In this document: positions 16,050 to 33,458 of the stretch, one piece after another
Numbering within the stretch: position 1 is the stretch's first letter
How the letters are laid out: every line of letters begins with the position of its first letter
From: an uncultured Bacilli bacterium
GTDB lineage: Bacteria; Bacillota_I; Bacilli_A; RF39; UBA660
Assembly: GCA_944358355.1 (NCBI GenBank)
Contig: CALVQY010000001.1
Location: forward strand, 1 to 61,468
Length of the DNA stretch: 61,468 nucleotides
Reading direction: 5' to 3'
Made by a program: the position numbers and the translations under genes
Notes under the pieces: model-generated
What the model saw: the letters and a program-made list of their open reading frames with translations, nothing else
Database searches by the model: none
What the model was told of the DNA's origin: nothing

Positions 16050-17681
16050 TCAATTATTTGGTATTTGTAGTACTTGACCAATAGAAAGTAAATTAGATGT
16101 TAAATTATTTAAAGTTTTAATAGCATCAACTGTAGTTCCAAATTTATTAGCAATACTCCATAAACTATCACCTGAGGCTACTGTATAGGTAGTATAAGTA
16201 GGATTAGTTGGAAAATTAGAGCCTGCTGTAGGAATAATTAGTACTTGTCCAATTGAAAGTAAATTAGATGTCAAACTATTTGCAGATTTTAAATTATTAA
16301 CAGTAACACCAAAACGATTTGCTATACTCCATAAACTATCACCTGAGGCTACTGTATAAGTAGTAGGAACTGTTACGTTATCTTCACTATCTTCTAAATC
16401 ATCTCCAGCACTGATTCCAGGTATAATTAATGATTGGCCTATACTTAAAGTATCACTAACTAAATCATTAGCATCTTTTATCTCTTGTACAGTAACTCCA
16501 AAACGTCTTGCTATACTCCAAAGACTATCTCCTCTTCCTACTGTATAATAAAATACTGCCCCATTTTCTTCACCATTATCTTCTTCATTAGTTCCTGGAA
16601 TAAGTAAAACTTGTCCTACACTTAAAGTATCACTAGTTAATTTATTAAGATCTCTTATTTGTTGAACCGTTACTCCAAATCTATTACCAATACTCCATAA
16701 GCTATCTCCCTTTACTACTGTATAAGGAAAAGATGGCCCTGTAATATTATCATTACCTTCATTACCATTACTTACACCCGGAATTATTAATACTTGTCCT
16801 ATACTCAAGGTATCACTAGTTAAATTGTTAGCTTGCCTTAAATCATTAACACTTATTCCATAACGACTTGCTATACTCCATAAACTATCACCTCTTTGCA
16901 CAGTATAAGTAACATTACCACTTGGAGGAACATTTCCATTATTACTTGGTATCCTTAAAACCTGTCCAACACTTAAGGTATCACTAGTTAAATTGTTAGC
17001 ATCTCTTAAAGCTTGTACAGTTACTCCATATCTTCTAGCAATACTATAAAGACTATCACCTTTTACTACTGTATAGAAATTATTACTACTACCTTCAGGT
17101 GGAATATAAGTAACACCAGCGTACTCTGCAATCGCTCTAACTACTGCTTCTACATAATTTAATAAATCATTTTGTAATTTAACTCTATCATTAGCATTAT
17201 CAATAAAACCATATTCAACTAATAATGATTGCATAGGAGAAGTTTCTCTAATAATATAATAATAATCTTTAGAAGGATCTTCAGGAAGTCTTCTCTGATA
17301 ATACTTACGCATAATTTGTCCTTCACTACCTATCTCTTCTAAGATAGACTGTGCTAAAGTAGAATTATTACGTAAAGCATAAATAACTTCTGCTCCTTCT
17401 CCGCCACCTGCATTTATATGATTAGAAATAAGTATAGCATTACTACTACCTCCAAAAGCTTCATTAGCACGTCTAAGACGATCTTCTCTACTTAAATTCT
17501 CATCATAATCTCTAGTTAAAACAGCAGGTATCCCTAATTCTCGTAATCTATCATACATATATAGCGATGCTTCTAATGTAAAGTCTTTCTCTTGTAAACC
17601 ATTAGAAACAGCACCAGGATCAGCACCCCCGTGTGAAGGAAGCAGAAAGTCCCAAATATTAAATATTATTCTAAAATTCAA
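16050..17681 (-). CDS. N-acetylmuramoyl-L-alanine amidase (Amidase_3) with six C-terminal LysM repeats; this is the 3' segment of a gene split by the element to its right
   Basis: The catalytic domain starts abruptly at ..PSHGGADPGAVSNGLQEKDF. The first ~16 codons of the track ORF (MNFRIIFNIWDFLLPS) are element-derived and overlap the recombinase stop. There are six repeats of YTV..GDSLWSIA.RFGVTV..L...N.L.S..L.IGQ.L.IP. The genuine N-terminus lies at 32834-32793. Confidence 0.9.
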   Translation of the reverse strand: MNFRIIFNIWDFLLPSHGGADPGAVSNGLQEKDFTLEASLYMYDRLRELGIPAVLTRDYDENLSREDRLRRANEAFGGSSNAILISNHINAGGGEGAEVIYALRNNSTLAQSILEEIGSEGQIMRKYYQRRLPEDPSKDYYYIIRETSPMQSLLVEYGFIDNANDRVKLQNDLLNYVEAVVRAIAEYAGVTYIPPEGSSNNFYTVVKGDSLYSIARRYGVTVQALRDANNLTSDTLSVGQVLRIPSNNGNVPPSGNVTYTVQRGDSLWSIASRYGISVNDLRQANNLTSDTLSIGQVLIIPGVSNGNEGNDNITGPSFPYTVVKGDSLWSIGNRFGVTVQQIRDLNKLTSDTLSVGQVLLIPGTNEEDNGEENGAVFYYTVGRGDSLWSIARRFGVTVQEIKDANDLVSDTLSIGQSLIIPGISAGDDLEDSEDNVTVPTTYTVASGDSLWSIANRFGVTVNNLKSANSLTSNLLSIGQVLIIPTAGSNFPTNPTYTTYTVASGDSLWSIANKFGTTVDAIKTLNNLTSNLLSIGQVLQIPNN

Positions 17682-19266
17682 AGTTCCATTCTATTTCAAT
17701 ATCTCTTGATTTAGTTTCTTTATCATAAACTCCTATATAAACCTTATCAATAAATTCATCTACTATTACTTTATTTAACTTACTTATATGTTTATATTTC
17801 TTTAAAATATCTTTTGCTTGTTTCTTATTATCAAGTCTCTGCTTTAAAGATTCTATTTCTTCATCTATTATAGAAACTCTTCTATTCATCTCTTCTATTT
17901 CTTTAGTATAATCACTTGATAACATCTTAAACATATCTTCAGTTATTACAAAATTAGCTTTATCTTCATAAAGTTTTCTATAATACGTTTTCTCTTCTTC
18001 TATTTTCCTATTAAGTAAAACCTTTTCTTGTTCTAGTATCTGAATTTCTTCATCATTTGTATTTTTAGATTCTCTGATGTTATATTCATTTTCTAGCTTT
18101 TCTTTATCATAATAGTTATCTAGTAAATCATTAATAGCATTTAATAAAACTTCTTCTAACTCATCTAACCTTATCGCTTTATTATTACAACAATTATGAA
18201 ATCTTCTAACACCCTTACATTGTAAATATGCTCTTTTACCATCCTTTACATTATAAACATTTCTCATAAATACCTTTTTACAGTTAAGACAATACACTTT
18301 TTTACTTAAGAAATGTATTTCACCTGATTTAATAGGGCATTCATGACTAGCAAGTCTTTTCTGTACCTTTTCCCAAGTATCTTTAGAAATAATAGACTCA
18401 TGAGCATTTTCTATTCTACACCAATCTTTTTTAGGTACAGTTTTAAACTTATGAACTTTATATCCTAAAGATGTTTTTTTACCCTGTACTAAATTACCAA
18501 TATATACTTCATTCCTAAGAATTTTTGCAATTGTATCATTAGTCCAACGCACACTATCATAATCGCAAGTTCCAGATACATACTTACTTCCATTTTGCTT
18601 TTTATATAAAGCTGGTGTTAAGACGTTAGCATTATTTAAATATTCGCTTATCTTATAATACCCATAACCATTCTCATACATTTTAAAAATATCTTTCACA
18701 ACTTTACTAGCGACAGGATCAATAACTAACTTATGTTTATCTTCACTACTTCTCATATAACCATAAGGTGCAAAACTACCCATAAATAAGCCATCTTCTC
18801 TTTTATTCTTTAATGATTTCTTAATATTTTGTGATAAGTCATCTAAATACCATTCATTTATTAGCCCATTAATTTGTCTTGATTTCTTATTAGATTCAAT
18901 ATTAGTATCAGCATTATCCACAATACTAACAAATCTAACATTCCATAGGGTGAACTTATTATGTAAGTATTTTTCTATTATCTCCATGTCTCTTGAAAAC
19001 CTAGATTGTGTTTTACATAAAACTAAATTAATTCTACCACTTTCACAATCTTTAATTAATCGTTCAAATTCAGGTCTATAAGTACCTGCCCCAGAGAAAT
19101 CATCATCAGAATAAATATCTACAACATCCCAGCCTTGCTTAAGAGCATATTTAATACACATACTCCTTTGATTTACAATACTATCACTATCATCATTCTT
19201 ATTAGCTTTAAACCTATCTTCATCAGATAATCTACAATATACACCTACCTTTTCTATCATAGCCAT
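17671..19266 (-). CDS. large serine recombinase (resolvase domain + recombinase domain + zinc ribbon + coiled coil)
   Basis: 531 aa. N-terminal catalytic block VGVYCRLSDEDR, NQR and the resolvase core. Cys-rich ribbon C-x2-C...C...C (CLNCKKVF..LQCKG..HNCCN). Long C-terminal coiled coil, as in the SpoIVCA and phage integrase class. Confidence 0.9.
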   Translation of the reverse strand: MAMIEKVGVYCRLSDEDRFKANKNDDSDSIVNQRSMCIKYALKQGWDVVDIYSDDDFSGAGTYRPEFERLIKDCESGRINLVLCKTQSRFSRDMEIIEKYLHNKFTLWNVRFVSIVDNADTNIESNKKSRQINGLINEWYLDDLSQNIKKSLKNKREDGLFMGSFAPYGYMRSSEDKHKLVIDPVASKVVKDIFKMYENGYGYYKISEYLNNANVLTPALYKKQNGSKYVSGTCDYDSVRWTNDTIAKILRNEVYIGNLVQGKKTSLGYKVHKFKTVPKKDWCRIENAHESIISKDTWEKVQKRLASHECPIKSGEIHFLSKKVYCLNCKKVFMRNVYNVKDGKRAYLQCKGVRRFHNCCNNKAIRLDELEEVLLNAINDLLDNYYDKEKLENEYNIRESKNTNDEEIQILEQEKVLLNRKIEEEKTYYRKLYEDKANFVITEDMFKMLSSDYTKEIEEMNRRVSIIDEEIESLKQRLDNKKQAKDILKKYKHISKLNKVIVDEFIDKVYIGVYDKETKSRDIEIEWNFEF

Positions 19267-19329
19267 TCCTCCAATTTCTTTAAAGAATGACTACAAACAC
19301 TTTTAAATACAAACACATTATAACTCATT

Positions 19330-19473
19330 TTAAACTCTATTTAAACTAGAAGTATTATTGTTTTCTAAAATAAGTATAATATTTAACCATTTTTTATTAA
19401 ATATATCTTTCAATTCTTCATTCGTTTTAGTATCACATTTAAACCTATATTTTACATTATATTTTACCTCCAT
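19330..19473 (-). CDS. possible 47-aa ORF upstream of the recombinase gene (below the ORF-track cutoff); candidate directionality factor or unknown
   Basis: ATG at 19473 preceded by AAGGGGG at optimal spacing. Reads MEVKYNVKYRFKCDTKTNEELKDIFNKKWLNIILILENNNTSSLNRV. No homology evidence. Confidence 0.3.
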   Translation of the reverse strand: MEVKYNVKYRFKCDTKTNEELKDIFNKKWLNIILILENNNTSSLNRV

Positions 19474-19535
19474 TTATCTAACCCCCTTTTATTATTAATT
19501 ATAAAATATGCCTCCTCATTAAATCATCTCTCTTT

Positions 19536-20021
19536 CTATAAATCTTTTAATAGTTCATTCATTTCTTCTATTTCTTCTTTAGTTGCACTAAGACTATTAC
19601 ACATTTCTTTCTGTTCTAACCAAACAGGAATAATTTCTTTATTTTTATATTTATTATTATTTTTCTTATAATTATTATTTATTTTATGATAGCAATTACT
19701 TTCTATGGATTTATCGCAAGTTTCTGCTACTCTATTAGAAGTTTTTGTTGGTATCTTTTCCTTATTTAGATATATTTTTCTTCTTCCATTATCAGTTCTA
19801 ACAAATATATACTCTTCTAATTTCAATTTAGATAAAGCAAGAGTTACTGTTCTAACTGATATATTTAGGTTATCTGCAAAATACTTATTACTAGCAAAAC
19901 AATAGTTATTTTTTAAGGTAAGTGACACGATAAGCCCCATAAGTAATTTTTCTGTACTTGATAAGTTCTTATCACTTAATACTATTCTTGGAGTTATGCT
20001 AAAAGTACAATCTAATTGCAT
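19536..20021 (-). CDS. winged-helix / HTH-domain protein typical of mobile-element replication or regulation modules
   Basis: 161 aa. LSSTEKLLMGLIVSL...CFASNKYFADNLNISVRTVTLALSKLKLEEYI matches the pattern of HTH_36-like plasmid and phage proteins. Confidence 0.5.
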   Translation of the reverse strand: MQLDCTFSITPRIVLSDKNLSSTEKLLMGLIVSLTLKNNYCFASNKYFADNLNISVRTVTLALSKLKLEEYIFVRTDNGRRKIYLNKEKIPTKTSNRVAETCDKSIESNCYHKINNNYKKNNNKYKNKEIIPVWLEQKEMCNSLSATKEEIEEMNELLKDL

Positions 20022-20146: not shown

Positions 20147-20404
20147 TTAGTTAAGTTTTACGGTGTACATACCGTTATCATACTCTTGATATACTAGATA
20201 TTTTCCCTGTTCTAGTTTTTCAAGATTTTTTCTCAAACCCTTATTAGTAATTCTAACAGTCTGTTGTATCTCGCCTACATTTATATCTGTAAAGTATCTA
20301 TTATACCCTTTAGAATAAATATAAGTATAAATGTACTTAGCTTCTTTTGGAATAGATTTATCTTTCCAAATCGCTTGTACTACTCTAAACTGACTCTTAA
20401 TCAT
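20147..20404 (-). CDS. small winged-helix DNA-binding protein
   Basis: 85 aa. AKYIYTYIYSKG...VGEIQQTVRITNKGLRKNLEKLEQGKYL resembles the N-terminal domain of the preceding gene product. Confidence 0.45.
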   Translation of the reverse strand: MIKSQFRVVQAIWKDKSIPKEAKYIYTYIYSKGYNRYFTDINVGEIQQTVRITNKGLRKNLEKLEQGKYLVYQEYDNGMYTVKLN

Positions 20405-20559
20405 TCATATGTTTCCTCCTTTCTTTGATGAGTTTTACATCAATTCGCTAATACTATAACATTAAGTATTGAGTTTGTCAACACTATAATTACTATTTTG
20501 TTGATTTTTACATCATAATATGTTATAATTTCTTTATCAAGAAAAAGAGGTGTAATTTA

Positions 20560-21153
20560 ATGACGAAGAAAAACACTACTGAACTAGGTAAATATATAAG
20601 TGAGGCTAGAGAAAAAGTTGGTATTTCTCAAAGAGAACTTGCTCGTAGATCTAATATGGACTGTGCAGAAGTATCACGTATTGAATCTGGGAAAAGAAAG
20701 AAACCTAATATTTTATATTTAAAAGGAATCTCTGAAACATTAGGATTAAGTTTAGTAAAATTAATGAAATTAGCTGGCTATAATGATGTAGAAATAAATT
20801 GGGGAAAAGATTTTAGTGATAGACGTTCTACTGCTGACTATCAAGCCCAAATAAAGTCTTATGAAAAGTTTTATTTTGATGTTTTAGATGATATAGAACA
20901 AAGACGTAAAAACGACTTTGCTTGTAAAGGAATAATAACTGATTTAATAGGCAAAATAGAAAATAAAGGACTTTCTAATGATGAAATATTAGAAAGCCTA
21001 AATGAAATATTAACAACAATAAAACCTAACTTAGAAAAATTTGATAAAGCAAAATATCCTAAATTTGATAGAGGTGTATTTCCTAAAATGGAAATTAATA
21101 CCAATACTAAATTAAATACACTTGTAGGAAAATTTACAGATAAAGAAAAATAA
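20560..21153 (+). CDS. XRE-family transcriptional regulator with a ~120-aa C-terminal extension (candidate element repressor)
   Basis: 197 aa. HTH LGKYISEAREKVGISQRELARRSNMDCAEVSRIESGKRK. It is divergent from the two winged-helix genes across a promoter-rich 155-bp spacer. Confidence 0.8.
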   Translation: MTKKNTTELGKYISEAREKVGISQRELARRSNMDCAEVSRIESGKRKKPNILYLKGISETLGLSLVKLMKLAGYNDVEINWGKDFSDRRSTADYQAQIKSYEKFYFDVLDDIEQRRKNDFACKGIITDLIGKIENKGLSNDEILESLNEILTTIKPNLEKFDKAKYPKFDRGVFPKMEINTNTKLNTLVGKFTDKEK

Positions 21154-21341: not shown

Positions 21342-23534
21342 TTATTTTTTTATAATACTCTTATCTGCGTTTTTAATCATGCTAGTTGACAAAGGTTTTG
21401 TTAAAGGTTCAGTGTATAAAACATCCAAACTATGTAAAGCTCTAGTCATAGCTACATATAATAACTTCATATCATTTTGATTAGTTGAAGAATAGAACTG
21501 TTCTGATGCGTTAGTAATAATCACACCATCAAACTCTAAACCTTTTGACAACTCGCTTGTTAAAATACATATACCACCATTATATTCAGAATCATCACTT
21601 GTTATTAAAGTTGTATTAAAGTTTTCATTATCTAAATATAATTTTATTTTTGCACAATCTTCAACATTTCTACATATGATACCAACAGATTTATAATCTT
21701 TATCTGAATATTGATATAATAATTCAGATATTCTCGTATTTATATCTTGTGTTTCTTCCTTCATATACTCAACTTCAGTTCCTGTTCTTATAACAGGATT
21801 TGCTTCGCTCATATTTAAATATCTTAAAATCTGATTTGCTGATCTTGTTATTTCCATTGTTGTTCTATAGCTCTTACTTAGTTGTAATATTTCACAATTA
21901 GAGTTAAAAATCTGTTTTTGAACATCTTCCCAAGAATCTACACCACGGCTTGGATATATTGATTGTGCTAAATCCCCAAAAATAGAAAATGTAGCATCAC
22001 TAAAAATCATTTTTAAAATATAATAATGAAACATACCTAAATCTTGAGCTTCGTCAACAATAACGTGAGCATATTTTTTAAATACTTCTTGTTGATTTCC
22101 ATTATTTAAAATATCAATATACATCAAAGATGGCAAATCTTCAAAATAAAACTTTTTCGATTTAATAGAGTTTAAAGTCTGTTTCTTAAGCAATTCAATT
22201 TCATCATGGCTTAAATTTTCTATGCAACTAACATTAGATACAAATTTTTTATATAAATTTAAAGTTGTAATTTTCAAAGGTTTAAAATAGTTTTTAATAG
22301 TTTTAGAACATCCTGTTTTTAATTCTTTCTTTATTTCGTCCAATTTATTCATAATATTTCTTTTTTCTTCAGACCCATTTGGAAGAGTAGATAACTCATC
22401 TTTATATTTTGATCTTACTAATTCATAAAGTCGCTCATTATCTTCCTTTATTTTTTGTATTAAAATTCTTTGTATATTAGTAGCTGTCACAGAAAAGCCA
22501 TTAATATCTCTAAAGTATGACTTTATACTATCCTCTGAAATTATTTCCATGCCATCGATTTCAATACCAGAAGAGAGAGAATTATTAACATATGTAGATA
22601 TATATGTATCAATTGCATTTTTATAATCAATTGATGTTTTTGCTTTTAAAACCTTTATTTCATTTTGATTATTAATCTTTTTAGAATTAATAATACTTAT
22701 TTTATCATCAAAAAAATATGTTGAAAAATCATCAAAAGTAAATTGACTAATATTTTCAGTATCTAAATCAGGTAATAATGCTGAAATATAATTTAAAAAA
22801 TACTTATTTGGGCCTATAATAATGAAATTTTCAGCTGTATATTTATCTTCATTATATATAAGATATGCAGCTCTATGTAAAGCTACTGTAGTTTTACCAC
22901 TACCAGCAACTCCTTGTACAATAATATTATCATTAAGTGGACGTCTAATAATCGCATTTTGTTCAGCCTGAATTGATGCAACAATATTTTTTAATCTTGC
23001 ATCTGCATTAGTTGTCAAAAAAGGTACTAATAACTCATCATCAGTAACTAAATCTGTATCCCTTACGCTAACTAACTTACCATCTTTAATAAAGATTTGA
23101 CTTTTTAAATTTAATTTTCCTGTAATAATACCTTCAGGTGCTTGATATTGAACATTACCAATACTTTGATCATAATATAATGTACAAACTGGAGTACGCC
23201 AATCGGTAGTTAAAATATTATTGTTTTCATCTGTTATAGTTGTTTTCCCTATATATATTTTATTATTATTTTTCGAACCATCTCTTTGAAAATCAATTCT
23301 ACCAAAATAAGGATTTAATTCTAAATTTTTTAATTTAGATAATCTTTTAATAATCATATCCTGTAAATGTTTAACTAAATCTTCATCTCCCCATTTTACT
23401 TCAGCATACCTTCCTTTATATTTATTAGGTATCTCTTCAAATTCTTTATTTTGATAAACTTTTTCCTCTTCTATTCTTTTTTGAACTTTTAATAAATACT
23501 CTTTTTCAATGTTAAATCTTTCATTATCTTTCAT
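21342..23534 (-). CDS. helD: HelD-type UvrD-like (superfamily 1) helicase / RNA polymerase-associated ATPase
   Basis: 730 aa. N-terminal block YFGRIDF...YIGKTTI......TDWRTPVCTLYY is characteristic of HelD/helicase IV. Walker A GVAGSGKTTVALHRAAYL, DEAQD Walker B and a C-terminal UvrD_C block (LYVAMTRALHSL). Confidence 0.8.
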   Translation of the reverse strand: MKDNERFNIEKEYLLKVQKRIEEEKVYQNKEFEEIPNKYKGRYAEVKWGDEDLVKHLQDMIIKRLSKLKNLELNPYFGRIDFQRDGSKNNNKIYIGKTTITDENNNILTTDWRTPVCTLYYDQSIGNVQYQAPEGIITGKLNLKSQIFIKDGKLVSVRDTDLVTDDELLVPFLTTNADARLKNIVASIQAEQNAIIRRPLNDNIIVQGVAGSGKTTVALHRAAYLIYNEDKYTAENFIIIGPNKYFLNYISALLPDLDTENISQFTFDDFSTYFFDDKISIINSKKINNQNEIKVLKAKTSIDYKNAIDTYISTYVNNSLSSGIEIDGMEIISEDSIKSYFRDINGFSVTATNIQRILIQKIKEDNERLYELVRSKYKDELSTLPNGSEEKRNIMNKLDEIKKELKTGCSKTIKNYFKPLKITTLNLYKKFVSNVSCIENLSHDEIELLKKQTLNSIKSKKFYFEDLPSLMYIDILNNGNQQEVFKKYAHVIVDEAQDLGMFHYYILKMIFSDATFSIFGDLAQSIYPSRGVDSWEDVQKQIFNSNCEILQLSKSYRTTMEITRSANQILRYLNMSEANPVIRTGTEVEYMKEETQDINTRISELLYQYSDKDYKSVGIICRNVEDCAKIKLYLDNENFNTTLITSDDSEYNGGICILTSELSKGLEFDGVIITNASEQFYSSTNQNDMKLLYVAMTRALHSLDVLYTEPLTKPLSTSMIKNADKSIIKK

Positions 23535-23558
23535 TACATATTCCCCCTAAAAATCATA

Positions 23559-23981
23559 CTACAATTCTATAAATTCATTATTATAAGCTTTCATTATCAT
23601 ATCTTTTGCTAAAATATCAATATCATCTAAATCTTCAATTTTAACTTTTTTAATCTCATAAAAATTTTCTTCGCAACATCTTTTCAATTCCTCTCCTCCT
23701 AACATTGGTGTTCCTGTTACTATTTTACAACTAAAAAAATGTGCAATTGAGTCATTTCCTTCATCTACTCCTAAATACCCAATAATATCAACATCCACGG
23801 AAAACTCCTCTTTTAATTCACGTTTTACATTTTCTTCCAAAGTTTCACCTTGCTTTATCCCACCTCCAGGTATTACATAGTATTCTTTTATACTTCCATC
23901 CTCTTTAATTCTCCTTCTAAACATAGCATACACTTTATCACCATCTATTATAATACCACGCGCACTTACTCTTTTTTCCAT
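23559..23981 (-). CDS. NUDIX hydrolase
   Basis: 140 aa. Nudix box GGGIKQGETLEENVKRELKEEFSV (G-x5-E-x7-REUxEExGU). Confidence 0.9.
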   Translation of the reverse strand: MEKRVSARGIIIDGDKVYAMFRRRIKEDGSIKEYYVIPGGGIKQGETLEENVKRELKEEFSVDVDIIGYLGVDEGNDSIAHFFSCKIVTGTPMLGGEELKRCCEENFYEIKKVKIEDLDDIDILAKDMIMKAYNNEFIEL

Positions 23982-25636
23982 TGTTTATCCTCCTTTAATT
24001 CTTCACTGATTAATGCCAACACAGTTTCACCAAAAAACAAAATATTATGTTGGACTTCTATAGGGTTTTTAATAGCATAGATTATATCAAAATCTGCTAT
24101 TTTTGTCAAAGTGTTTATCTTTCCAATTTCTTTCAAATATTTTTTCAAATCATTAAGTACTCTTTCATATCCGAAAGAAAATATTCTCTTTGTATTTAAA
24201 AAACATTTTATTAATACAAGTAACTTTTTTAAATACTTTTTATCAATACTAACTTTATTGTTAATTATATCTATATGTAACCTTCTACATTCGTGTAATA
24301 CATTAGGCAAATTTTCTGTATCATTTTGTACAATATAGCTATAATCAATTTTATTTTTTATAATTTTTCCATATAAAGTTGGATTTACTTGATAGTTTTG
24401 TTTTTCATAAAGCATAACTTTTGTTTTACCATCTATCCACCCAGTATTAAATTCGTTTTTTGAATATACTGTTAACCCTATATGAATTTTAAATTTTTCC
24501 AATTTTTTAGTAAAAATAACAACTTCATTTACTACATATTTATTCAATATTATATATATATCTATATCTGAACAACCAACTACAATTTCATTTTTCCCAC
24601 CAGAGCCTCCTAAAATAATGCAACTAAGATTATCCTTGAATTGATTAATTGCTAATTGCACTGTAGCTTTAATAGTTATTTTATATTCTAATGGAAAATT
24701 TATATACTTATACTTTTTTAAGATACTATCAATTTTAATAGAGATATTATTAGATTTTTCTACTATAATTTTATCAATCAAACCCTTAAGAGAAAAATTT
24801 ATATTTTCTTTTACATAAGAATCTAAATGATTATATTTTATATTTAATCTTTTATAAAAATATTCTACTATTTTTATTTTGTCTTCTTGTAAAATATTAG
24901 ACTTTAAAAATAAATCTACTAAATTATAAGTGTGTAATATAAAATCATTCATTCGATTAATTTCAGATTGATAATCGTTCTTTGTTACAGCACTATTCTC
25001 TCTTTTTATATACTTATATAACTCTATATTATTTGAAGAAACTGTAGGAGAATTAAAAATTAAAATAGGCATCATCCCATAATCTTCATGTAATGTATTT
25101 TCCAAAAACGATAAATTTGTTTGACAGAAATTTTCTCTATTTATAACATATGACCAAGGTGTTGCAAAAATCCTATTAGATTCACAAAAATATAATAATG
25201 CTTTTAACCCATCTATATTATCAAAGTATGGTAAATCAAAACGACAATCATACTCTTTGTTTTCAACACATTGTACAGAGCATTTTAATAAATCAACAGG
25301 ATATTGTTTTAAATAATTATCAACTTTAACTATTGAATTAGGCACTAACTCATCATCAGAATCTAAAAAAATAAAATAATCACCATGACATTTAGATATA
25401 CCAATATTTCTAGCGACAGAAATACCCTGATGAGAAATTTTATAGTAATTAATTATTTTAGATAAATTATTTTGCCTAATAAATTGCAAAACAACTTCAC
25501 TAGACAAATCTTCAGAGCCATCATCAATAATAACTATTTCTATATCATTAGACTGTTTCAAAACAGATTTAATACTATTTAATATGGTATTTTCTGAATT
25601 ATACATAGGAATAACAATACTATATCTATATTTCAT
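23966..25636 (-). CDS. fusion protein: N-terminal family-2 glycosyltransferase + C-terminal Pol-beta-superfamily nucleotidyltransferase-like domain
   Basis: 556 aa. GT2: YSIVIPMYNSE...VIIDDGSEDLS...FLDSDDE. C-terminal half: ILGGSGGKNEIVVGCSDIDIYIIL fits the hG[GS]-x9-13-D-h-D-h minimal NTase signature and is followed by a helical region. Confidence 0.7.
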   Translation of the reverse strand: MKYRYSIVIPMYNSENTILNSIKSVLKQSNDIEIVIIDDGSEDLSSEVVLQFIRQNNLSKIINYYKISHQGISVARNIGISKCHGDYFIFLDSDDELVPNSIVKVDNYLKQYPVDLLKCSVQCVENKEYDCRFDLPYFDNIDGLKALLYFCESNRIFATPWSYVINRENFCQTNLSFLENTLHEDYGMMPILIFNSPTVSSNNIELYKYIKRENSAVTKNDYQSEINRMNDFILHTYNLVDLFLKSNILQEDKIKIVEYFYKRLNIKYNHLDSYVKENINFSLKGLIDKIIVEKSNNISIKIDSILKKYKYINFPLEYKITIKATVQLAINQFKDNLSCIILGGSGGKNEIVVGCSDIDIYIILNKYVVNEVVIFTKKLEKFKIHIGLTVYSKNEFNTGWIDGKTKVMLYEKQNYQVNPTLYGKIIKNKIDYSYIVQNDTENLPNVLHECRRLHIDIINNKVSIDKKYLKKLLVLIKCFLNTKRIFSFGYERVLNDLKKYLKEIGKINTLTKIADFDIIYAIKNPIEVQHNILFFGETVLALISEELKEDKQWKKE

Positions 25637-26261
25637 TTTTTAACACCTTCATTAACCTTTTTTCATTAATTACATCTTCATTATTTAATATTTTAACACT
25701 GTGTTTTATTTCATCTAAACTATTAGGATTAGGACCATGAATTTGATTGAAAAATATCATTTTATATGCTGAATCATCATAAAGAAAATTAGCAGGAAAT
25801 TTTTTTATATCAACCTTTAGTCCCGACAAATCAATATCATATAATGGTTTGTCAAAAGTTATATCATCTTCATTTAAAAATTTTAAATAGTATAAATCAG
25901 TATTACTTACATACTTTTTTCTTATATCCTTCTTTAATTGATATAATTTTTGTAATGATGTGGTTATATTATCATTATTTATATCATTTATATTAAAAAG
26001 AACAACAATTCCATTATTTTTAGGATAAATATGATAATAACCCATAATAGATGTGAGCAATTTTTTTCGAAGTTCTAAACAATTACCACTACTCATCATA
26101 ACATCATATTCATATATCATAGATGCTATTTTTGTCCAATTATCCATATAATATAATTTAATACTTTTAATATTTTCAATATTAATTACATTTTTAAAAT
26201 AATATCTAAGTGATACCTCATTGTTAAGAGCATCTGGTTTTATAATATTAATTACATTCAT
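25626..26261 (-). CDS. divergent nucleoside-diphosphate-kinase-like protein
   Basis: 211 aa. N-terminal IIKPDA and C-terminal NQIHGPNPNSLDEIKHSVKIL mirror the NDK motifs (M/I)IKPDG and N.IHGSDS...A..EI..WF, with a ~60-aa insertion between them. By-eye assignment only. Confidence 0.45.
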   Translation of the reverse strand: MNVINIIKPDALNNEVSLRYYFKNVINIENIKSIKLYYMDNWTKIASMIYEYDVMMSSGNCLELRKKLLTSIMGYYHIYPKNNGIVVLFNINDINNDNITTSLQKLYQLKKDIRKKYVSNTDLYYLKFLNEDDITFDKPLYDIDLSGLKVDIKKFPANFLYDDSAYKMIFFNQIHGPNPNSLDEIKHSVKILNNEDVINEKRLMKVLKNEI

Positions 26262-27325
26262 ACAACCTCCATATTAGATAGCATATTTTCAAAAATCAAT
26301 AAAACATTACTATCATTTTTGTTAAATAAATAATAAAAATATTCTACTAAATAAATTGAATAGAAATAATCATTATACTCCATTTCCTCTATATTAAATA
26401 CACATAATAATCTCATTATAATATAATATTTAACATCACTACTAATACATATTTTATTTTTTTTTAAAATATTAATATATCTAAGAACATACTCTTTTCT
26501 AATATTACTACTTTTATATATACAATTTATCTCGATGGAGTTCATATTATTAATTATTATAAAAGGCTCAAATAAAATATATTGTTGAAGTGCTTTTTCA
26601 TGCAAAAAATAAGATTTAGAATGATATTTAGGACAAAAATAATTATCATAAAATAATGTAGATATAAACATAATAGCAAACTCACCAATTATACTATTAT
26701 ATCCAGCAGTAACCAAATCAAAAAAGCATGGTTTTATAGAAATATTTAAAGTATTAGGATCTCCTTGACTAAAAAAACACATTTTCTCATTTTCCTTTTC
26801 AAAATATTCAACAACTTCATCTATAATCATATTAATGCTTTTACATCTTTTTCCATTAATAAATATAATTTTAGAAAAATCATTATCATCCTTATACCAT
26901 TTTTTTAGTCTATTCTTAATCCTACCTTTAAAAAATCTGTCATTTGCACTATAATCTAAAATTTTTGTATATTTTAAATTAATATCATAAACAGATAAAA
27001 TATCATTCATTTTATTAATAACATTTATATTTATACTCGCTTCTTTATCATTTTTGACTAATAAATCATTAAGCAAACCTTTATTTTTTTCTACAGTATC
27101 TTCGTATTCATATATGATTACATACTTATTATCTTTCAAAAAGTTATAATATATCATCTTTTTTATAGGTAATTTATTTATTGCAAGTTTATATCCATTC
27201 AATTCATCTTGATAATCTGATTTATTAAGTACTTTATAAAAGTATTTTTTATCATTATAAATAAAATTTCCATTTATTGAATTATTCTGTTTATTAACAA
27301 TAAATTTTAACTTATCCTTTTTCAT
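26258..27325 (-). CDS. APH/choline-kinase-like small-molecule phosphotransferase
   Basis: 355 aa. Putative beta3 Lys (YFYKV), hinge IIYEYED, catalytic-loop-like SQGDPNTLNI (compare HGDxxxxN) and metal-binding FFDLVTAG. By-eye assignment. Confidence 0.45.
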   Translation of the reverse strand: MKKDKLKFIVNKQNNSINGNFIYNDKKYFYKVLNKSDYQDELNGYKLAINKLPIKKMIYYNFLKDNKYVIIYEYEDTVEKNKGLLNDLLVKNDKEASININVINKMNDILSVYDINLKYTKILDYSANDRFFKGRIKNRLKKWYKDDNDFSKIIFINGKRCKSINMIIDEVVEYFEKENEKMCFFSQGDPNTLNISIKPCFFDLVTAGYNSIIGEFAIMFISTLFYDNYFCPKYHSKSYFLHEKALQQYILFEPFIIINNMNSIEINCIYKSSNIRKEYVLRYINILKKNKICISSDVKYYIIMRLLCVFNIEEMEYNDYFYSIYLVEYFYYLFNKNDSNVLLIFENMLSNMEVV

Positions 27326-27338
27326 ATTACACCTTACA

Positions 27339-28067
27339 CTAATTCATTAAACTACGACCACCATCTACAACAAAGATACTGCCAGTTGTATATCTAGAAA
27401 AAACCTCTAATATCGTTTTAATAAATACAGCTATTTCATCAGGAAGAAAAATCTTCTTGAGTGGAACTTTAGCTAGTGCCACTTCCTTTTCCTCCTTATT
27501 ATAATTCCAAGAAGCATTCATATCTGTTTCTACTGCACCAAATGAAATTGCATTAATAGTAATATTTCTAGGAGCAAACTCTAATGCCAATTCTTTAGTC
27601 AAAATTTCCAAGGCACTTTTTGAGGAATCATATGCATATTTATTTGTTCTAGGTACATTTGAATGTATTGAAAGTACATTTAATATAAATAAGTTTGACT
27701 GTACATATTTTGTAACCGCCGATATACAATTACAAGTTCCTATATAATTATTTTTCATTATATATAAATAATCTTTATCGTTATAATGTGAAAAATCAGA
27801 TATCATTTGTTTAGAAGCATTATTTACAAGAATATCTATATGTTGTCTTTCACTATATATTTCATAAACTACTTTATCTACTTCTGCATAACTCGATATA
27901 TCACATTTTTTAAAAAAAATATTTATAGAATCAAAATATTTTACATTTGAATCATCTGTATCTAATATATAAATATAATTATCAATCGATAGTAATTCAG
28001 CTACTGCCTTCCCAATACCATTTGCTCCACCAGTTATGATAATAATATTATTACGTAAGCGACTCAT
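27339..28067 (-). CDS. short-chain dehydrogenase/reductase (SDR)
   Basis: 242 aa. TGGANGIGKAVA cofactor motif, NNAS, and the catalytic YDSSK (YxxxK). Confidence 0.9.
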   Translation of the reverse strand: MSRLRNNIIIITGGANGIGKAVAELLSIDNYIYILDTDDSNVKYFDSINIFFKKCDISSYAEVDKVVYEIYSERQHIDILVNNASKQMISDFSHYNDKDYLYIMKNNYIGTCNCISAVTKYVQSNLFILNVLSIHSNVPRTNKYAYDSSKSALEILTKELALEFAPRNITINAISFGAVETDMNASWNYNKEEKEVALAKVPLKKIFLPDEIAVFIKTILEVFSRYTTGSIFVVDGGRSLMN

Positions 28068-28150: not shown

Positions 28151-28169
28151 CATTTTTTTTAACAATTAG

Positions 28170-28478
28170 TTACCTAATAAAATCATCTAATTTTTTATCT
28201 AAAATAATAGATAATTTAACTAGCTTTTCTAAAGGTATCATCTTAGTACTATCATTCTCACTTTCAAATCTCTTATAATGATTATGATTATAATCTAAAA
28301 GTGCTGAAATATTCTCAGTAGAATATGGATTAATAGATGTATTTAAGTTTTGTTTCTTAAACTCATTATATTTTTCTAAACGAAACTTCTTAATATTTCT
28401 ACAAATATTAACATACATTTCTTCTTTATTTACATTTTGTAATAAATCTTGTAACTCTTGAAAACTATGAATAGCCAT
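28170..28478 (-). CDS. small protein with a degenerate XRE-like HTH
   Basis: 102 aa. ICRNIKKFRLEKY...STENISALL resembles a Cro/C1 HTH. Weak. Confidence 0.4.
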   Translation of the reverse strand: MAIHSFQELQDLLQNVNKEEMYVNICRNIKKFRLEKYNEFKKQNLNTSINPYSTENISALLDYNHNHYKRFESENDSTKMIPLEKLVKLSIILDKKLDDFIR

Positions 28479-28587: not shown

Positions 28588-28615
28588 ACAAAAAAAGAAT
28601 ATATAGCATATTCTT
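28588..28615 (-). terminator. intrinsic terminator of the 28614-28886 XRE gene
   Basis: AAGAATAT (28595-28602) pairs with ATATTCTT (28608-28615), a perfect 8-bp stem. The minus strand continues with a U run. Confidence 0.65.
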
Positions 28616-28886
28616 ATCGTCTTGGAATACGATGATTAACAACTGGAGTTCTTTCTACAAATAATTGTTCTAAAGATACTCCAAGAGTATCAGCAATATG
28701 TCCAATATAATCTATTCTCGTATTACGTTTAGCATTTTCTATATTAGAAACATAAGTAGGAGTAGTCCCAAGTTCATCTGCAAAATCTTCTTGAGACCAA
28801 TTCTTTTTAAGTCTAAAATAAACTATATTATTCGCTAATATTTTACGAGCTTGATTTTCATAATGTTTACTCTTAATAACCATCAC
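28614..28886 (-). CDS. XRE-family HTH transcriptional regulator
   Basis: 90 aa. ILANNIVYFRLKKNWSQEDFADELGTTPTYVSNIENAKRNTRIDYIGHIADTLGVSLEQLF. Confidence 0.85.
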   Translation of the reverse strand: MMVIKSKHYENQARKILANNIVYFRLKKNWSQEDFADELGTTPTYVSNIENAKRNTRIDYIGHIADTLGVSLEQLFVERTPVVNHRIPRR

Positions 28887-28898
28887 ATCTTTTCTTTT

Positions 28899-28960
28899 TA
28901 ACTTACTAACATTGTAATAAGTTTATATTCTTTAAACCATACTAACTATGTAGTAAGTTA
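28899..28960. promoter_or_regulatory. 10-bp perfect inverted repeat (candidate operator pair) in the divergent promoter region
   Basis: TAACTTACTA (28899-28908) and TAGTAAGTTA (28951-28960). The right arm overlaps TATAAT (28959-28964) of the plus-strand gene. Confidence 0.5.
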
Positions 28961-28993
28961 TAATTACATATTAATAAAAAAGAAAAGAGATAA

Positions 28994-29569
28994 ATGACGA
29001 ATAGTGCCAAGAAAGTAGGAAAAGAAAGGAAAGATATGCCAAAAATTAATGAGTTAAATAACTATATATCAACTATTACAAATAACTTTAATAATACCAT
29101 CTTAAAAATTAAAGATATTGAATATCATTATTACTTAGATAAATTACTTACTACTGAATTTAATAATTTAAAAGAAAAAGATAAAGAGTTAATTTTGGAA
29201 GAACTAATTAACTACTATCTAACAGAAATTAAAAATCTTAAATCTCAAATTTCTTTAAAAGAAATATCAAAACAGGTTAATGATATAATTGACTTTTTCA
29301 ATTTTCATAAAGACGATTTAAAAGATAACATAGACTATTGCTCTATTATTGAAGAAGCAGAAGATATCGCAAGTGATCTATATTCAAAGGTAACTAATGT
29401 TAATGATAGGAATATAGAATTGCCTATAAAAATTACATTTTTAAAATCCTACTGCATCAGTAGTAATATAAAAGATAATGATATTATAAGAGTACTTACA
29501 TGGATAGTTCTAAAACTATCTGTTATATACCACTGTTTGCCCAAACAGGCAATTAATTGTAGTAGATAA
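28994..29569 (+). CDS. hypothetical protein
   Basis: 191-aa ORF, helical and low-complexity, with no motif recognised. Confidence 0.45.
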   Translation: MTNSAKKVGKERKDMPKINELNNYISTITNNFNNTILKIKDIEYHYYLDKLLTTEFNNLKEKDKELILEELINYYLTEIKNLKSQISLKEISKQVNDIIDFFNFHKDDLKDNIDYCSIIEEAEDIASDLYSKVTNVNDRNIELPIKITFLKSYCISSNIKDNDIIRVLTWIVLKLSVIYHCLPKQAINCSR

Positions 29570-29594
29570 AATTAATATACATCCTACTTTCTTT

Positions 29595-29630
29595 AACTAG
29601 CATCTATAAAAGTATGCTAGTTTTATTATA
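29595..29630. terminator. bidirectional terminator between the 28994-29569 gene and mob
   Basis: AACTAGCAT (29595-29603) pairs with ATGCTAGTT (29614-29622), followed by TTTATT. Confidence 0.7.
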
Positions 29631-30897
29631 AACTTAATTCATCATCGTTAGATATATCATAGCCGTCATTATAATTTATACCTACATAATCAAATAGTTC
29701 ATCTTCTTTACTAGTATTATTAGCAATATCATAAACATCATCTTGATTAAAGTCATTATTGTCATAATAGTCCTTAATTTCGCCTGTAACAACATCTTTT
29801 GTAATTTCATTACCAATTTGTAATAACTTTCTAAAAAATGTCTTTATCGCCTTTAAAATAGCATTAATATAATCTCTTAACTTATTATTCTCTATTATAA
29901 GGTTACTATTTCTAGTTTTAAGATACTTTATTTCTCTTTGATATTTTTTGTTTTCTTTATCTAAAGAATTATAACTATTTACATAACTATTAATAACATT
30001 AAATACTTGCTCTATTTTAGGCTGTAACTCTTTAACCTTTTTAGTTTCCATAATAACCATATTCATAGTATCAAAAGTATCTTTTTCAACAACAATATGT
30101 TTCTTATCAAAAGGAATAGTTTTAGAAGTTTTCATTTGTTCTTCTAACTTATTCATAGCCTTATCTAATCTTTCATTTCTAGTATTTAAGTTCTGTTCCA
30201 ATTTTCTATTAATATTCTTATAGTCTTTAATCTTAATGTGCTTTCTATCACTACCTTTAATACCACGTTCTAAATCATAACCTTTATCTATTAATCTTTT
30301 ATGATATTTATCTTGTAATTCTGATAAATGAATATTATCTTTAATATATTGTTTCTTAGATATAGTATATCTTTCTGTTTTAGTTCTATTATCAAACTTT
30401 CTAACTAAAGGAACAACTACACAATGAATATGAGGTGTTTTCTCGTCCAGATGAATTACACTATGTAAAACTTGTTCTTTTTTATAACCCAAATCTTCAT
30501 AAACAAATTCCATACAAGTATTAGCCCACTCTTTTATATCATCTATTGTCATATTATCAAAAAATTCAGATGTAGCAGTAAATAATAATTCATCTGCAAC
30601 TACATTTCTTGACTTATCTAACATCTGTTTAAAAGTTTTCTTTCTATCTTCACGTTCTGTTTTCATTCTCTCATCATGTTCTTTTTTATATTCTTTAGTT
30701 AAATTATAAAAACCCTTAACATATTTATCTGTCAAGGATACTAATTCAATATTATTCTTACTTAAATTTTTATTTATATCAGGATTGGAATTATAAGCTT
30801 TCTTCTCCCTTTTATTATGAGAACCTATTTGTGCTAAATCATTTAATGTAAAAATAGGCTCACTTCTAAATATTGCATAATTTAAATTTATAAATAT
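29626..30897 (-). CDS. mob: MobV-family (Mob_Pre) relaxase; the conserved N-terminus lies upstream of the first canonical start
   Basis: HxDE..PHxH motif IHLDEKTPHIHCVVVPL. The in-frame extension 30736-30897 encodes ..NYAIFRSEPIFTLNDLAQIGSHNKREKKAYNSNPDINKNLSKNNIEL, matching the MobV motif I/II region (MSYxVxR...HNxR...N.DI). No ATG, GTG or TTG occurs between the TAG at 30898-30900 and the TTG at 30735. Confidence 0.8.
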   Translation of the reverse strand: MFINLNYAIFRSEPIFTLNDLAQIGSHNKREKKAYNSNPDINKNLSKNNIELVSLTDKYVKGFYNLTKEYKKEHDERMKTEREDRKKTFKQMLDKSRNVVADELLFTATSEFFDNMTIDDIKEWANTCMEFVYEDLGYKKEQVLHSVIHLDEKTPHIHCVVVPLVRKFDNRTKTERYTISKKQYIKDNIHLSELQDKYHKRLIDKGYDLERGIKGSDRKHIKIKDYKNINRKLEQNLNTRNERLDKAMNKLEEQMKTSKTIPFDKKHIVVEKDTFDTMNMVIMETKKVKELQPKIEQVFNVINSYVNSYNSLDKENKKYQREIKYLKTRNSNLIIENNKLRDYINAILKAIKTFFRKLLQIGNEITKDVVTGEIKDYYDNNDFNQDDVYDIANNTSKEDELFDYVGINYNDGYDISNDDELSL

Positions 30898-30929
30898 CTA
30901 CCTCCTCTTAATAATACAATTAATAAATA

Positions 30930-32675
30930 TTATTTATTATTAACCAACGGTTCATACTGCTGTAATGAATTAATTCTATATTCTACTAATTTATTAATTT
31001 TTAAACTATTAACATATAAATTAAATTCAACTTTATATTCTTCGTTCATTCTTTTATAAAATAATTCCCATATTTCTAAAAACCATGACCACGTATTTTC
31101 ATCAATCTCATTAGATAAATCAGGAACTAAATAATTATTATTTCTACAAATCTTAATAAATTCTTCTTGTACTATTTCTTTATCATTATCAATAAAACGA
31201 GAATCCAACCATTCTAATAAACTACAATCATATTCTAAGTTCTTAAAAGTTTTCTCAATATTTAATAATTTATCACTTAAGTATTTTGTTTTAATCTTGT
31301 CATTATATTCAATTGCTAAATCACTTAAAATTTTAGATTCTTTAAACTTAAAACCAAATAACTTTATTTTATTCTCATAAATACTTTTATTTACATCATA
31401 ATAATTCTTAAACATAATATCGAAAAAAACAGAAGCTACTTCATCTAAATTTAGATTTAATTCTAATGCACTATTCCATATAAGTATTTCATAAAAATCA
31501 TTAATAAATATATCTAATGTAATAAACTTATACTTACCATTTTTCATATGTTTATAAAGATTATTAATTTTGAAAGTTATTTTATCAATAGATAAATAAA
31601 ATTTATCTTTTTCATTAGGTTTCTTCTCTTCCAAGTAACTATCAATAGTTTTATTTAGTTTATTTTTTAAATCTGCACTATATTCACATTTGTATATATC
31701 TAATATATAATTTAAAATACAGGTGTCATCATTATTACTAAATACAGAATTAAAATAATGATTCATAATTCTAGAATTAATTTCTTCATCAATTACATAT
31801 TTAAAAGAATCATTATCATCTCTTTTCTCATCTGGCTTATAAACTTCTTCAGTACATTCAATAGCAACGGACATACAATTCTTCAGAACTAACAAATTAA
31901 CTTTCTTATTTTCTTTTATTTCAACATAATTATTAATTACTTCCTTAAATAAATTAATTCCTTTTATTATTGTACGTAAATTTCTAATATCATGTTTTTT
32001 TATATAATCATTAATAAAAGGAGTTACTTCTATTTCTTCGATATAACTACATATTTCACTAGTTACTAAATTTCTTATAGATTCATCAGAAAATTTTTGT
32101 ATTTTATATTCCTTTTCTATAATTTTTTCTTTAAACCTATTCCATTTTTTTCTATCACTATCAATCATATTATTTTCATCACCAATAATAACTATCTTCA
32201 CTTTATTAAATTGTGAAAATTCCTCAATCATCCCCATAATATCTTCAATTAAAATATTATTACTTTTTCGTTCTAAATCATCTATTACAATAATTAATGA
32301 TTTAGACTCTAATAAAGTACTATATTCAGATATCAAACCTTTTCTAGACAACTCAGGAGAATTTATGGTAAAGCCACAAATTGAAAAAGAAGCTTTAACA
32401 TTTTTAACAAATTTATGTAATATTATTTTCTTTTTATTCAATGAACTTAACTTTTTAAACAACTCTCTTGCTACACTATTTTCAATAGAATCAAAACTAG
32501 TTTTTCCAAATAAAGTTATATATATAAAATTTTCATTATGTTCTTTTATATATTTATTTACATAATAACTCTTACCTATACCCCAAGGACCATTAATAAA
32601 TATTTTCTTATAAGTATTATCATTATCTAATTGATTTAAAATTTCTAAAATAGCACTTGATTCCAACATAATCAC
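30930..32675 (-). CDS. KAP-family P-loop NTPase
   Basis: 581 aa. Walker A INGPWGIGKSYY and Walker B IVIDDLERK are typical KAP signatures, followed by a long helical C-terminal region. Confidence 0.75.
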   Translation of the reverse strand: MIMLESSAILEILNQLDNDNTYKKIFINGPWGIGKSYYVNKYIKEHNENFIYITLFGKTSFDSIENSVARELFKKLSSLNKKKIILHKFVKNVKASFSICGFTINSPELSRKGLISEYSTLLESKSLIIVIDDLERKSNNILIEDIMGMIEEFSQFNKVKIVIIGDENNMIDSDRKKWNRFKEKIIEKEYKIQKFSDESIRNLVTSEICSYIEEIEVTPFINDYIKKHDIRNLRTIIKGINLFKEVINNYVEIKENKKVNLLVLKNCMSVAIECTEEVYKPDEKRDDNDSFKYVIDEEINSRIMNHYFNSVFSNNDDTCILNYILDIYKCEYSADLKNKLNKTIDSYLEEKKPNEKDKFYLSIDKITFKINNLYKHMKNGKYKFITLDIFINDFYEILIWNSALELNLNLDEVASVFFDIMFKNYYDVNKSIYENKIKLFGFKFKESKILSDLAIEYNDKIKTKYLSDKLLNIEKTFKNLEYDCSLLEWLDSRFIDNDKEIVQEEFIKICRNNNYLVPDLSNEIDENTWSWFLEIWELFYKRMNEEYKVEFNLYVNSLKINKLVEYRINSLQQYEPLVNNK

Positions 32676-32695
32676 CTCATTAATATTATACTACT

Positions 32696-32865
32696 AAAAA
32701 AGACACTTTTCTTACTAAAGTATCTCTTTTCCTTGTATTTATTAGCATTCATAGTCATTTCCCTATTTTTGGGATACTCCTATTCCTCCATGACCAGCAT
32801 CAACCACAACACCTGTCACTATTCGCTCATTCATAATATTCACCTCTACATTAAAATATGTAAAA
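32696..32865 (+). repeat. repeat family Y, copy 1: element right end + att core + amidase 5' end, RBS and promoter; partner at 36046-36204
   Basis: About 90% identical to 36046-36204, except that copy 2 lacks the 9 nt TCCATGACC (32787-32795). Confidence 0.85.
32763..32834 (-). pseudogene. 5' fragment of the split amidase gene (MNERIVTGVVVDAGHGG) fused to 6 element-encoded codons and a stop
   Basis: AGAGGTGA RBS, ATG at 32834, then MNERIVTGVVVDAGHGG|IGVSQK*. VVDAGHGG is the missing first half of the Amidase_3 motif (D.GHGG.DPGA) whose second half starts the 16050-17681 ORF. Confidence 0.85.
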
Positions 32866-33444: not shown

Positions 33445-33458
33445 AACCTCTCCTTTAA

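Follow-up and report, generated by a model that had tools for sequence, protein, structure and literature searches.

What kind of DNA element divides a cell-wall amidase gene in two, and under what control would it leave that gene again? The question is raised by a contig of an uncultured Bacilli bacterium (GenBank assembly GCA_944358355.1, contig CALVQY010000001.1; 61,468 nt, the whole of which is called the window here), in which an amidase gene with LysM repeats is interrupted by 15 kb of foreign DNA, designated E1. A preliminary description of the window had offered two possibilities, i.e., a new member of the class of intervening elements typified by skin, which are excised in the mother cell, or a plain integrative mobilizable element (IME) that had inactivated the gene. 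The split gene, the element and its rejoining stand in the present analysis, and the content and the spread of E1 favour the IME. E1 resides in an Onthousia-like, uncultured, low-GC Bacilli gut bacterium and, judged from its genes, is an IME of the serine-recombinase/MOBV kind. We lean towards the explanation that a probable late mother-cell gene serves it as a cheap landing site and that its excision is governed by a switch of its own. In the following, P numbers denote database protein homologs (e.g., P0121) and L numbers denote compared loci (e.g., L173).

The split amidase gene and the crossover point

Both pieces of the amidase gene lie on the minus strand. The 5′ fragment (32763-32834) begins at ATG 32834 and encodes MNERIVTGVVVDAG plus the first two bases of His15, after which the DNA is that of the element; read through the junction, the frame from this ATG gives MNERIVTGVVVDAGHGG, then a foreign IGVSQK and a stop codon. 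The first 17 residues of the fragment match intact orthologs exactly. The 3′ part (16050-17633) extends from codon 15 to the stop codon and encodes the remainder of the Amidase_3 domain and six LysM repeats in an intact frame. It is contained in a long open reading frame (ORF; 16050-17681, minus strand), in which the Amidase_3 domain is entered at ..PSHGGADPGAV, near 17633. Joined, the two pieces encode a protein of 541 aa that comprises Amidase_3 (residues 9-183) and the six LysM repeats. The gene is interrupted in codon 15, which specifies the His of the GHGG motif. The protein has no signal peptide, and the catalytic domain begins at residue 9. Its best named family match is CwlD, with only 81 bits against a cut-off of 221 bits, and its best solved relative is the amidase domain of Cwp6. 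The preliminary description had reported the ORF opening in the middle of Amidase_3, the orphan 5′ piece on the same strand, and a 531-aa serine recombinase gene whose stop codon lies about 38 nt from the junction; all of these were recovered, and every coordinate given there proved correct.

It had also proposed that the joined pieces restore the canonical in-frame start of this family, and had suggested a search for uninterrupted orthologs that align across the joint. The 120 best database homologs were sorted by their N-termini. Sixty-seven of them start with MNER.VTGVVVDAGHGGADPGAV and align across the joint, and 19 start with the element-derived pseudo-start MNF[RN]IIFNIWDFLLPSHGG, i.e., the same site is occupied. 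The others comprise 18 proteins that start at MRKYYQRRL, 6 distant intact homologs that start with MIV.D.GHGG, and 10 with other N-terminally truncated or odd starts. An odd N-terminus (MECSFRLVLGIRRSSTWWVSSGLQEK) in P0071 looks like a frameshifted GHGGADPGAV, and may reflect a decayed allele or a sequencing error. One public record, P0121, is the joined 541-aa protein residue for residue, and the proposed start is confirmed by this exact record as well as by the intact homologs. In the contig of P0121, L173, the insert is precisely absent. The flanks of this near-isogenic empty site (10.0 kb and 11.6 kb, 21.6 kb in all) share 99.3-99.5% identity with the window, and the locus supplies an empty attB. 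An intact syntenic locus, L001, shares the neighbours HU, CCA-type nucleotidyltransferase, DnaD, Nth, PBP1 and RecU.

The comparison with L173 also located the crossover. The CA of the His codon is all that the two flank alignments have in common: the left one ends at the CA of attL (32791-32792, minus strand) and the right one starts at the CA of attR (17632-17633, minus strand). The attL sequence departs from the empty attB directly past this CA, and the reconstructed attP has a dyad centred on it, with 20/35 symmetric positions as compared with 13/35 for attB. Because the flank overlap, the point of divergence between attL and attB, and the attP dyad coincide there, the crossover was assigned to the CA dinucleotide, which sits within a TCA shared by both element ends. 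The junction sequences are GATGCTGGTCATGGAGGAATAGGAG for attL, CTTCCTTCACACGGGGGTGCTGATCC for attR, GATGCTGGTCACGGGGGTGCTGATCC for attB and CTGCTTCCTTCACATGGAGGAATAGGAGTATCCC for attP. The octamer CAyGGrGG (CCyCCrTG on the plus strand), noted earlier as common to both junctions, holds as a similarity, but not as the recombination core; it was dropped as the crossover on the grounds of the empty-site comparison and the attP symmetry. The wider likeness arises because the half-sites of attP and attB resemble each other. Removal of E1 at the CA, as read from the sequence, restores the amidase gene scar-free and in frame. The attB, attL and attR sites and the inferred attP of a new large serine recombinase are thereby defined to the base, and the occupied and empty near-isogenic pair provides a clean natural case. 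Large serine recombinases are useful as genome-engineering tools.

In the proposed mechanism, a TndX/TnpX-like recombinase would exchange strands at the CA in the His codon of the conserved D-A-G-H-G-G motif, and the integration would part the promoter, the ribosome-binding site and the first 14 codons from the rest of the amidase gene. With the element resident, the gene would be silent and no active amidase would be made, and precise excision would rebuild it without a scar. This would not hold if E1 supplied a replacement N-terminus, or if the split were an assembly artefact, both of which we regard as highly improbable. Gene callers do annotate, in many assemblies, a 543-aa ORF that starts in element DNA (MNFRIIFNIWDFLLPSHGG...), and the His of HGG is kept in it. 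However, its start would be a weak TTG codon that lies within the recombinase gene. The in-frame extension is not conserved either, since in L008, L009, L011, L014, L015 and L019 the frame closes within a few codons before the junction, and the replacement N-terminus was ruled out on this ground. As for an artefact, independent assemblies of at least five samples, and of other species as well, show the occupied structure.

Gene content and spread of E1

E1 occupies 17634-32790 on the minus strand (15,159 bp counting one CA). From attL, the order is a KAP NTPase, a Mob_Pre relaxase, small ORFs with an XRE regulator, a cargo block, and then a switch/recombination module. The Mob_Pre (MOBV) relaxase (29626-30735, minus strand; 89.9 bits) is kept beside attL in L009, L011 and L034, and its presence near the end opposite to the recombinase suggests that E1 can be mobilised by a helper conjugative element. 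In the 15 E1 ORFs other than the relaxase, no match to mating-pore or type IV secretion system families was obtained with Pfam, NCBIfam and PHROGs. Searches of the E1 ORFs with Pfam and PHROGs found no phage structural, packaging or lysis genes; the matches were confined to regulators and a replication-initiator-like protein. A prophage origin was ruled out, because the E1 ORFs lack phage structural matches. The replication-initiator-like protein is the product of the HTH_36 gene (19536-20021, minus strand), which is DnaD-like and matches replication-initiator PHROGs. The features by which IMEs are recognised are found together in E1: a recombinase of its own, a relaxase without mating-pore genes, a short att core with an empty attB, and horizontal spread.

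The last of these is evident from L004 (Candidatus Onthousia excrementipullorum CHK184), in which the element occupies the corresponding site and runs collinear with that of the window. Within the element, the DNA identity between L004 and the window is 100% for the SDR, orf355 and GT2 genes, 99% for the HelD-like gene and 97% for the recombinase gene. In the host DNA, it is 83-88% for the amidase, 76% for the CCA-type enzyme, 72% for DnaD and 79% for Nth. Since the element is 97-100% identical as against 72-79% for the flanking housekeeping genes, a recent interspecies transfer is required. Occupied and empty alleles are also found side by side in the 90% protein cluster of the window's own amidase, in which 3 alleles are intact, 5 are occupied at site 1 (the GHGG codons) and 5 are truncated at a second site (see below); the occupied and empty forms come from different samples of one study. 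The near-identity in a different species, together with the relaxase, the replication-initiator-like gene and an XRE regulator with sigma-A-type promoters (see below), favours the IME.

The remaining genes are mostly cargo or small ORFs. The KAP-family P-loop NTPase gene (30930-32675, minus strand) is cargo and matches the PADLOC candidate defence family PDC-S49 (100 bits). Beyond the relaxase follow a 191-aa ORF on the plus strand (28994-29569), which has no Pfam, NCBIfam, PADLOC or PHROG match, a 90-aa XRE regulator (28614-28886, minus strand; HTH_3, 53.7 bits), and a 102-aa ORF (28170-28478, minus strand) with no match in Pfam, PADLOC or PHROG. The cargo block (21342-28067, minus strand) encodes a HelD-like RNA-polymerase-recycling helicase (414 bits, slightly below the NCBIfam cut-off of 419), a NUDIX protein, a GT2 glycosyltransferase of 556 aa, two ORFs without a family, and an SDR protein. 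A related element in L005 has other genes in place of this block.

Among the serine-recombinase IMEs of Firmicutes, E1 resembles Tn4451/Tn4453 (TnpX, with the MobV relaxase TnpZ) and the site-specific streptococcal IMEs in rumA and other genes in having a large serine recombinase and a Mob_Pre/MOBV relaxase, without conjugation pore genes. It shares with serine-recombinase IMEs the 2-bp crossover, the gene-disrupting insertion, the variable cargo and the horizontal spread (PMC5704250). On the other hand, it is strictly site-specific, unlike Tn4451, and its recombinase is only about 32% identical to TndX, the closest annotated recombinase. It also differs from the serine-recombinase IMEs in its target, which is new and consists of the GHGG codons of an Amidase_3 gene, and in having an additional conserved 47-aa ORF and a replication-initiator-like gene.

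The promoter of the target gene and the host

The amidase promoter stays with the 5′ fragment (32852-32878, minus strand). Its -10 element, CATATTTTA (32860-32852), ends 17 nt before the ATG, and GC, not AC, occupies the -35 position (32878-32877). The consensus of sigma-K promoters is AC at -35 and CATATAAT at -10 (PMC3789822), and the preliminary description had seen a fit of this -10 element to the sigma-K type. By itself, CATAnnnTA has 86 occurrences in the window where 106 would be expected, and its mere presence was dropped as evidence of sporulation. As the motif is common in the window, it is meaningful only through position and conservation. With regard to position, CATAnnnTA lies 14-18 nt upstream of a start in only three cases among the 59 gene starts of the window, namely the two copies of the amidase 5′ end (the second is described below) and a CwlJ/SleB-type Hydrolase_2 gene. 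The latter (143 aa; 59137-59609, coding 59178-59609, plus strand) is preceded by ACaatttataataaaaaaCATAAAGTA, which ends 14 nt before its ATG. The full AC-N16/17-CATAnnnTA motif occurs six times in the window, and only the one of the Hydrolase_2 gene (AC-N16-CATAAAGTA) is located within 60 nt of an ORF start. The earlier naming of this gene as CwlJ-type holds at the level of Pfam Hydrolase_2, but not at that of the SleB equivalog, for which the score is far below the cut-off.

With regard to conservation, ten distinct and otherwise unalignable upstream regions of the amidase family were compared. CATAnnnTA was found in 8/10 and the full AC-N16/17-CATAnnnTA in 7/10 of them, 15-19 nt before the ATG, while among 1231 ORFs of the same low-GC loci the frequencies were 2.4% and 0.3% (4/1231), respectively. 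Fisher tests against this background gave 1.5e-11 for CATAnnnTA and 4e-14 for the full motif, where the promoters are orthologous and not independent trials. The same motif is thus kept upstream of diverged orthologs, which lends comparative support to the sigma-K assignment. From this promoter and the lack of a signal peptide, the amidase is probably a late mother-cell gene product that serves in mother-cell lysis or is associated with the spore; a role as a spore-associated cortex amidase would be equally possible.

The alternative that the host does not sporulate, and that E1 has simply knocked out a redundant vegetative autolysin whose CATAnnnTA is read by another sigma factor or is an odd sigma-A promoter, was weighed against the same data. 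In its favour, the TAnnnT core of a sigma-A -10 element is included in the sigma-K motif, the AC of the motif overlaps the AC of TTGACA, and the promoter in the window has GC at the -35 position. However, the C, the A and the trailing A of CATAnnnTA, which sigma-K needs and sigma-A does not require, are the conserved positions (8/10 regions versus 2.4% of the background), and no consistent TTGACA was found at the proper spacing in the upstream regions of the amidase family. Moreover, within the window the motif precedes the start of just one other gene, which encodes a hydrolase of the spore-cortex-lytic type, and a cytoplasmic amidase without an export signal fits release through lysis of the mother cell. 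We consider this alternative unlikely.

Evidence on the host itself points in both directions. Its relatives are metagenome-assembled genomes labelled Bacilli, Tenericutes or Onthousia. In favour of endospore formation is the CwlJ-type gene, which bears the promoter motif of the amidase. For the RFN20, RF39 and ML615J-28 radiation, sporulation genes are predicted in the families that have peptidoglycan, with spo0A and a core set in RFN20/RF39 (PMC10868615), whereas SpoMAG scores RFN20 genomes 0% and calls them non-sporulating (PMC12536801). A tblastn search with seven Bacillus subtilis proteins (Spo0A, SpoIIID, SpoIVA, SigK, SpoVT, SpoVS and SpoIIAB) in 2.1 Mb of compared loci gave receiver-domain hits only and no sporulation gene, but the loci are not a random sample and the test is a weak one. 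Walking outward from both ends of the window met housekeeping genes and a tet-type mobile cassette only. The conserved sigma-K-type promoter is, for its part, sequence-level evidence that Onthousia and its relatives, a poorly known gut lineage often labelled Tenericutes, keep a mother-cell sigma regulon.

CwlC and CwlH of B. subtilis are sigma-K/GerE-dependent amidases of mother-cell lysis (PMC517825). The target of E1 shares with them an N-terminal Amidase_3 domain without a signal peptide, C-terminal peptidoglycan-binding repeats, and a sigma-K-type promoter (PMC517825), and differs in having LysM repeats instead of SPOR; a corresponding function is suggested by this likeness. In the collection of papers searched, no amidase was found among the reported targets of sporulation intervening elements.

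Control of excision and neighbouring remnants

The recombination module lies next to attR. The large serine recombinase (531 aa; 17671-19266, minus strand) has Resolvase, Recombinase, Zn_ribbon_recom and DUF4368 domains and the catalytic motif YCRLS. Directly upstream of it is a conserved 47-aa ORF (19330-19473, minus strand) with a strong ribosome-binding site and no Pfam or PHROG match. Homologs of 45-49 aa are present in elements whose recombinases are 53-72% identical, and the ORF is a reasonable candidate for a directionality factor. These two genes form, with orf85 and the HTH_36 gene, an operon divergent from an XRE regulator. In this switch region (20147-21153), orf85 (20147-20404, minus strand) and the XRE gene (20560-21153, plus strand) are separated by two face-to-face promoters of the sigma-A type, TTGACA-17-TATAGT (20481-20453, minus strand) and TTGATT-17-TATAAT (20501-20529, plus strand). 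They are the best sigma-70-type matches of the region, in which the total number of such matches is not above that in shuffled sequence. A TATAAT -10 element upstream of the recombinase is kept across the clade. The backbone of Mob_Pre...XRE-orf85-HTH_36-small ORF-recombinase recurs in L007, L009 and L011, whose recombinases are only 59-69% identical; in L007 it is visible only from XRE to the recombinase, and in L011 the small ORF was also found.

A sequence-level test of the regions that precede the recombinase, the 47-aa ORF and the operon found no conserved CATAnnnTA or sigma-E-type -10 element. A copy of CATATTTTA located 28 nt upstream of the 47-aa ORF was rejected as a sporulation promoter, as it is lost even in the 97%-identical relative L004. 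At this level, the promoters of the module give no support to the skin-like interpretation. We favour, as stated above, an IME whose excision would be driven by its own repressor switch and not by sporulation. The amidase would be expressed in the mother cell and be dispensable during growth, and a gene unneeded during growth would be a cheap landing site, which would explain why several recombinase lineages are found there. Serine-recombinase IMEs that integrate in and disrupt dispensable genes are known (PMC5704250).

The principal competitor is a developmentally programmed element of the skin, SP-beta or gin type, kept in growing cells and the forespore and excised in the terminal mother cell for a sigma-K-timed amidase. 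It speaks for such an element that the amidase has a conserved sigma-K-type promoter and no signal peptide, that the CwlJ-type gene in the window bears the same promoter motif, and that the rejoining is exact. In addition, SP-beta is both mobile and developmental (PMC4191935), and the prediction of sporulation genes in the peptidoglycan-positive families cited above is in line with it. Several observations weigh against our preferred explanation. Among close amidase orthologs, about 36% are interrupted at one of the two sites, which would be a high load for a gene merely lost and is what the intervening-element model predicts. All interrupted alleles observed keep intact reading frames and none is decayed; this would fit a recent insertion, and equally a gene still used after excision. 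An excised-circle attP junction, for which the preliminary description had proposed to look, was found neither in the IMG/VR viral contigs nor in the compared loci. The lack of a recognised sporulation promoter in the module is a weak negative, as an unrecognised factor or site could exert control. Finally, the experimentally tested serine-recombinase elements in mother-cell genes, the non-phage gin included, show sporulation-specific excision in every case known to us (PMC5595907, PMC4191935, PMC5025042).

Against programmed excision stand the lack of a conserved sigma-E- or sigma-K-type promoter on the recombinase, the 47-aa ORF and the operon, and the wiring of the module as an XRE-controlled sigma-A switch. 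Furthermore, TnpX-type recombinases can excise without a directionality factor (PMC5704250), and sporulation of the host is only predicted, with one tool calling RFN20 non-sporulating as mentioned above. Taken together, we regard programmed excision as a serious alternative, though a less probable one than excision under the IME's own switch.

The way in which the site is used bears on both explanations. Recombinases that are 48-72% identical to that of E1 adjoin Amidase_3 genes cut at the same H-G-G codons in L007, L008, L009, L011, L014, L015 and L019, and in L006 and L013 the element at the amidase site is in the opposite orientation. This clade of recombinases is specialised on DNA that encodes the conserved catalytic motif of one amidase family. 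Other serine-recombinase elements use the second site, between NAGG and GEGAE at about codon 90 (equivalent to about 17404-17410 in the window), in L083-L086, and sites 1 and 2 are both occupied in L005, L008 and L015. That one recombinase clade and the unrelated site-2 recombinases all target the amidase gene argues for programmed excision, as does the persistence of a minimal derivative at the amidase site in L008 (2460-5092). This derivative of 2.6 kb consists of a GT2 fragment, a NUDIX gene, a small ORF and the recombinase gene, and has no relaxase. As separate observations, L091-L094 also belong to the loci of the second-site hot spot, and some site-2 elements carry group II intron reverse transcriptases and Fic genes.

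The ATPase gene of an NMT1-type ABC transporter is the target of more distant recombinases (42-48% identity), which split it at its LSGGxxQRV signature, in either orientation. Since ABC ATPase genes are also split, the wider recombinase family is not confined to one gene, and the often sigma-A-type promoter of the ATPase operon counts against programmed excision. Loci of this type include L018, L020, L022, L029, L034, L036-L038, L044, L056, L066 and L069, among others. Where the ATPase gene is the first of its operon, most upstream regions have motifs like CATAAACTA, 14-21 nt ahead of the ATG; TGnTATAAT-type promoters are found instead where the binding-protein gene comes first.

E1 resembles skin (in sigK), SP-beta (in spsM), vfbin and gin (in gerE of Bacillus cereus) in splitting a gene that is apparently expressed in the mother cell and in an excision that would be in frame (PMC5595907, PMC4191935, PMC5025042); like gin, it is not a prophage (PMC5595907). 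It differs from these elements in that its recombinase and candidate directionality factor have no recognised sporulation-type promoter, in its relaxase and demonstrable interspecies spread, and in its host, an uncultured Bacilli lineage of reduced genome. It is a tentative idea that such mobilizable elements have become developmental switches in a sigma-K-dependent amidase gene, being cut out in the mother cell while still moving between species. On this idea, the excision of both elements would be needed wherever one gene is occupied by two of them, the highest number found. If excision were linked to sporulation, the skin/SP-beta/gin paradigm would extend to mobilizable elements and to a terminal lysis enzyme. 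E1 would then be without precedent, both as an intervening element in a lytic amidase gene and as one of the IME type, and would give indirect evidence that 'Tenericutes-like' gut bacteria really sporulate.

Upstream of the 5′ fragment, the window holds the traces of an older event. At 36045-36204 (minus strand), next to a cation-efflux gene, the amidase promoter is found again, together with 13 codons of the gene and about 90 nt of the left arm of the element. This fossil attL of 160 bp is 90-93% identical to 32697-32865, and a 9-nt deletion removes its crossover. The repeat of CATATTTTA at 36199-36191, pointed out earlier, is indeed a copy, but not an independent motif: it is seen because the fossil attL duplicates the amidase promoter. 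The fossil bounds E2, a decayed remnant of 3.3 kb (32883-36133, minus strand) that has no recombinase and contains a Fic/SoFic gene, a NUDIX fragment, an XRE gene, a TM2 protein gene, a 120-aa ORF and an E1-like intergenic module. Both the fossil attL and E2 are also present in the empty-site locus L173. The duplication of the promoter and 5′ end does not appear to be accounted for by a simple attP × attB integration.

At the far end of the window (60419-61468) lies a widespread cassette of genes for a GyrI-like protein, a 158-aa ORF, a glyoxalase, a PadR regulator and an EF-G-like ribosomal-protection (tet-type) protein. The 158-aa protein occurs in about 18,000 blocks of the sequence collection, often beside conjugation genes.

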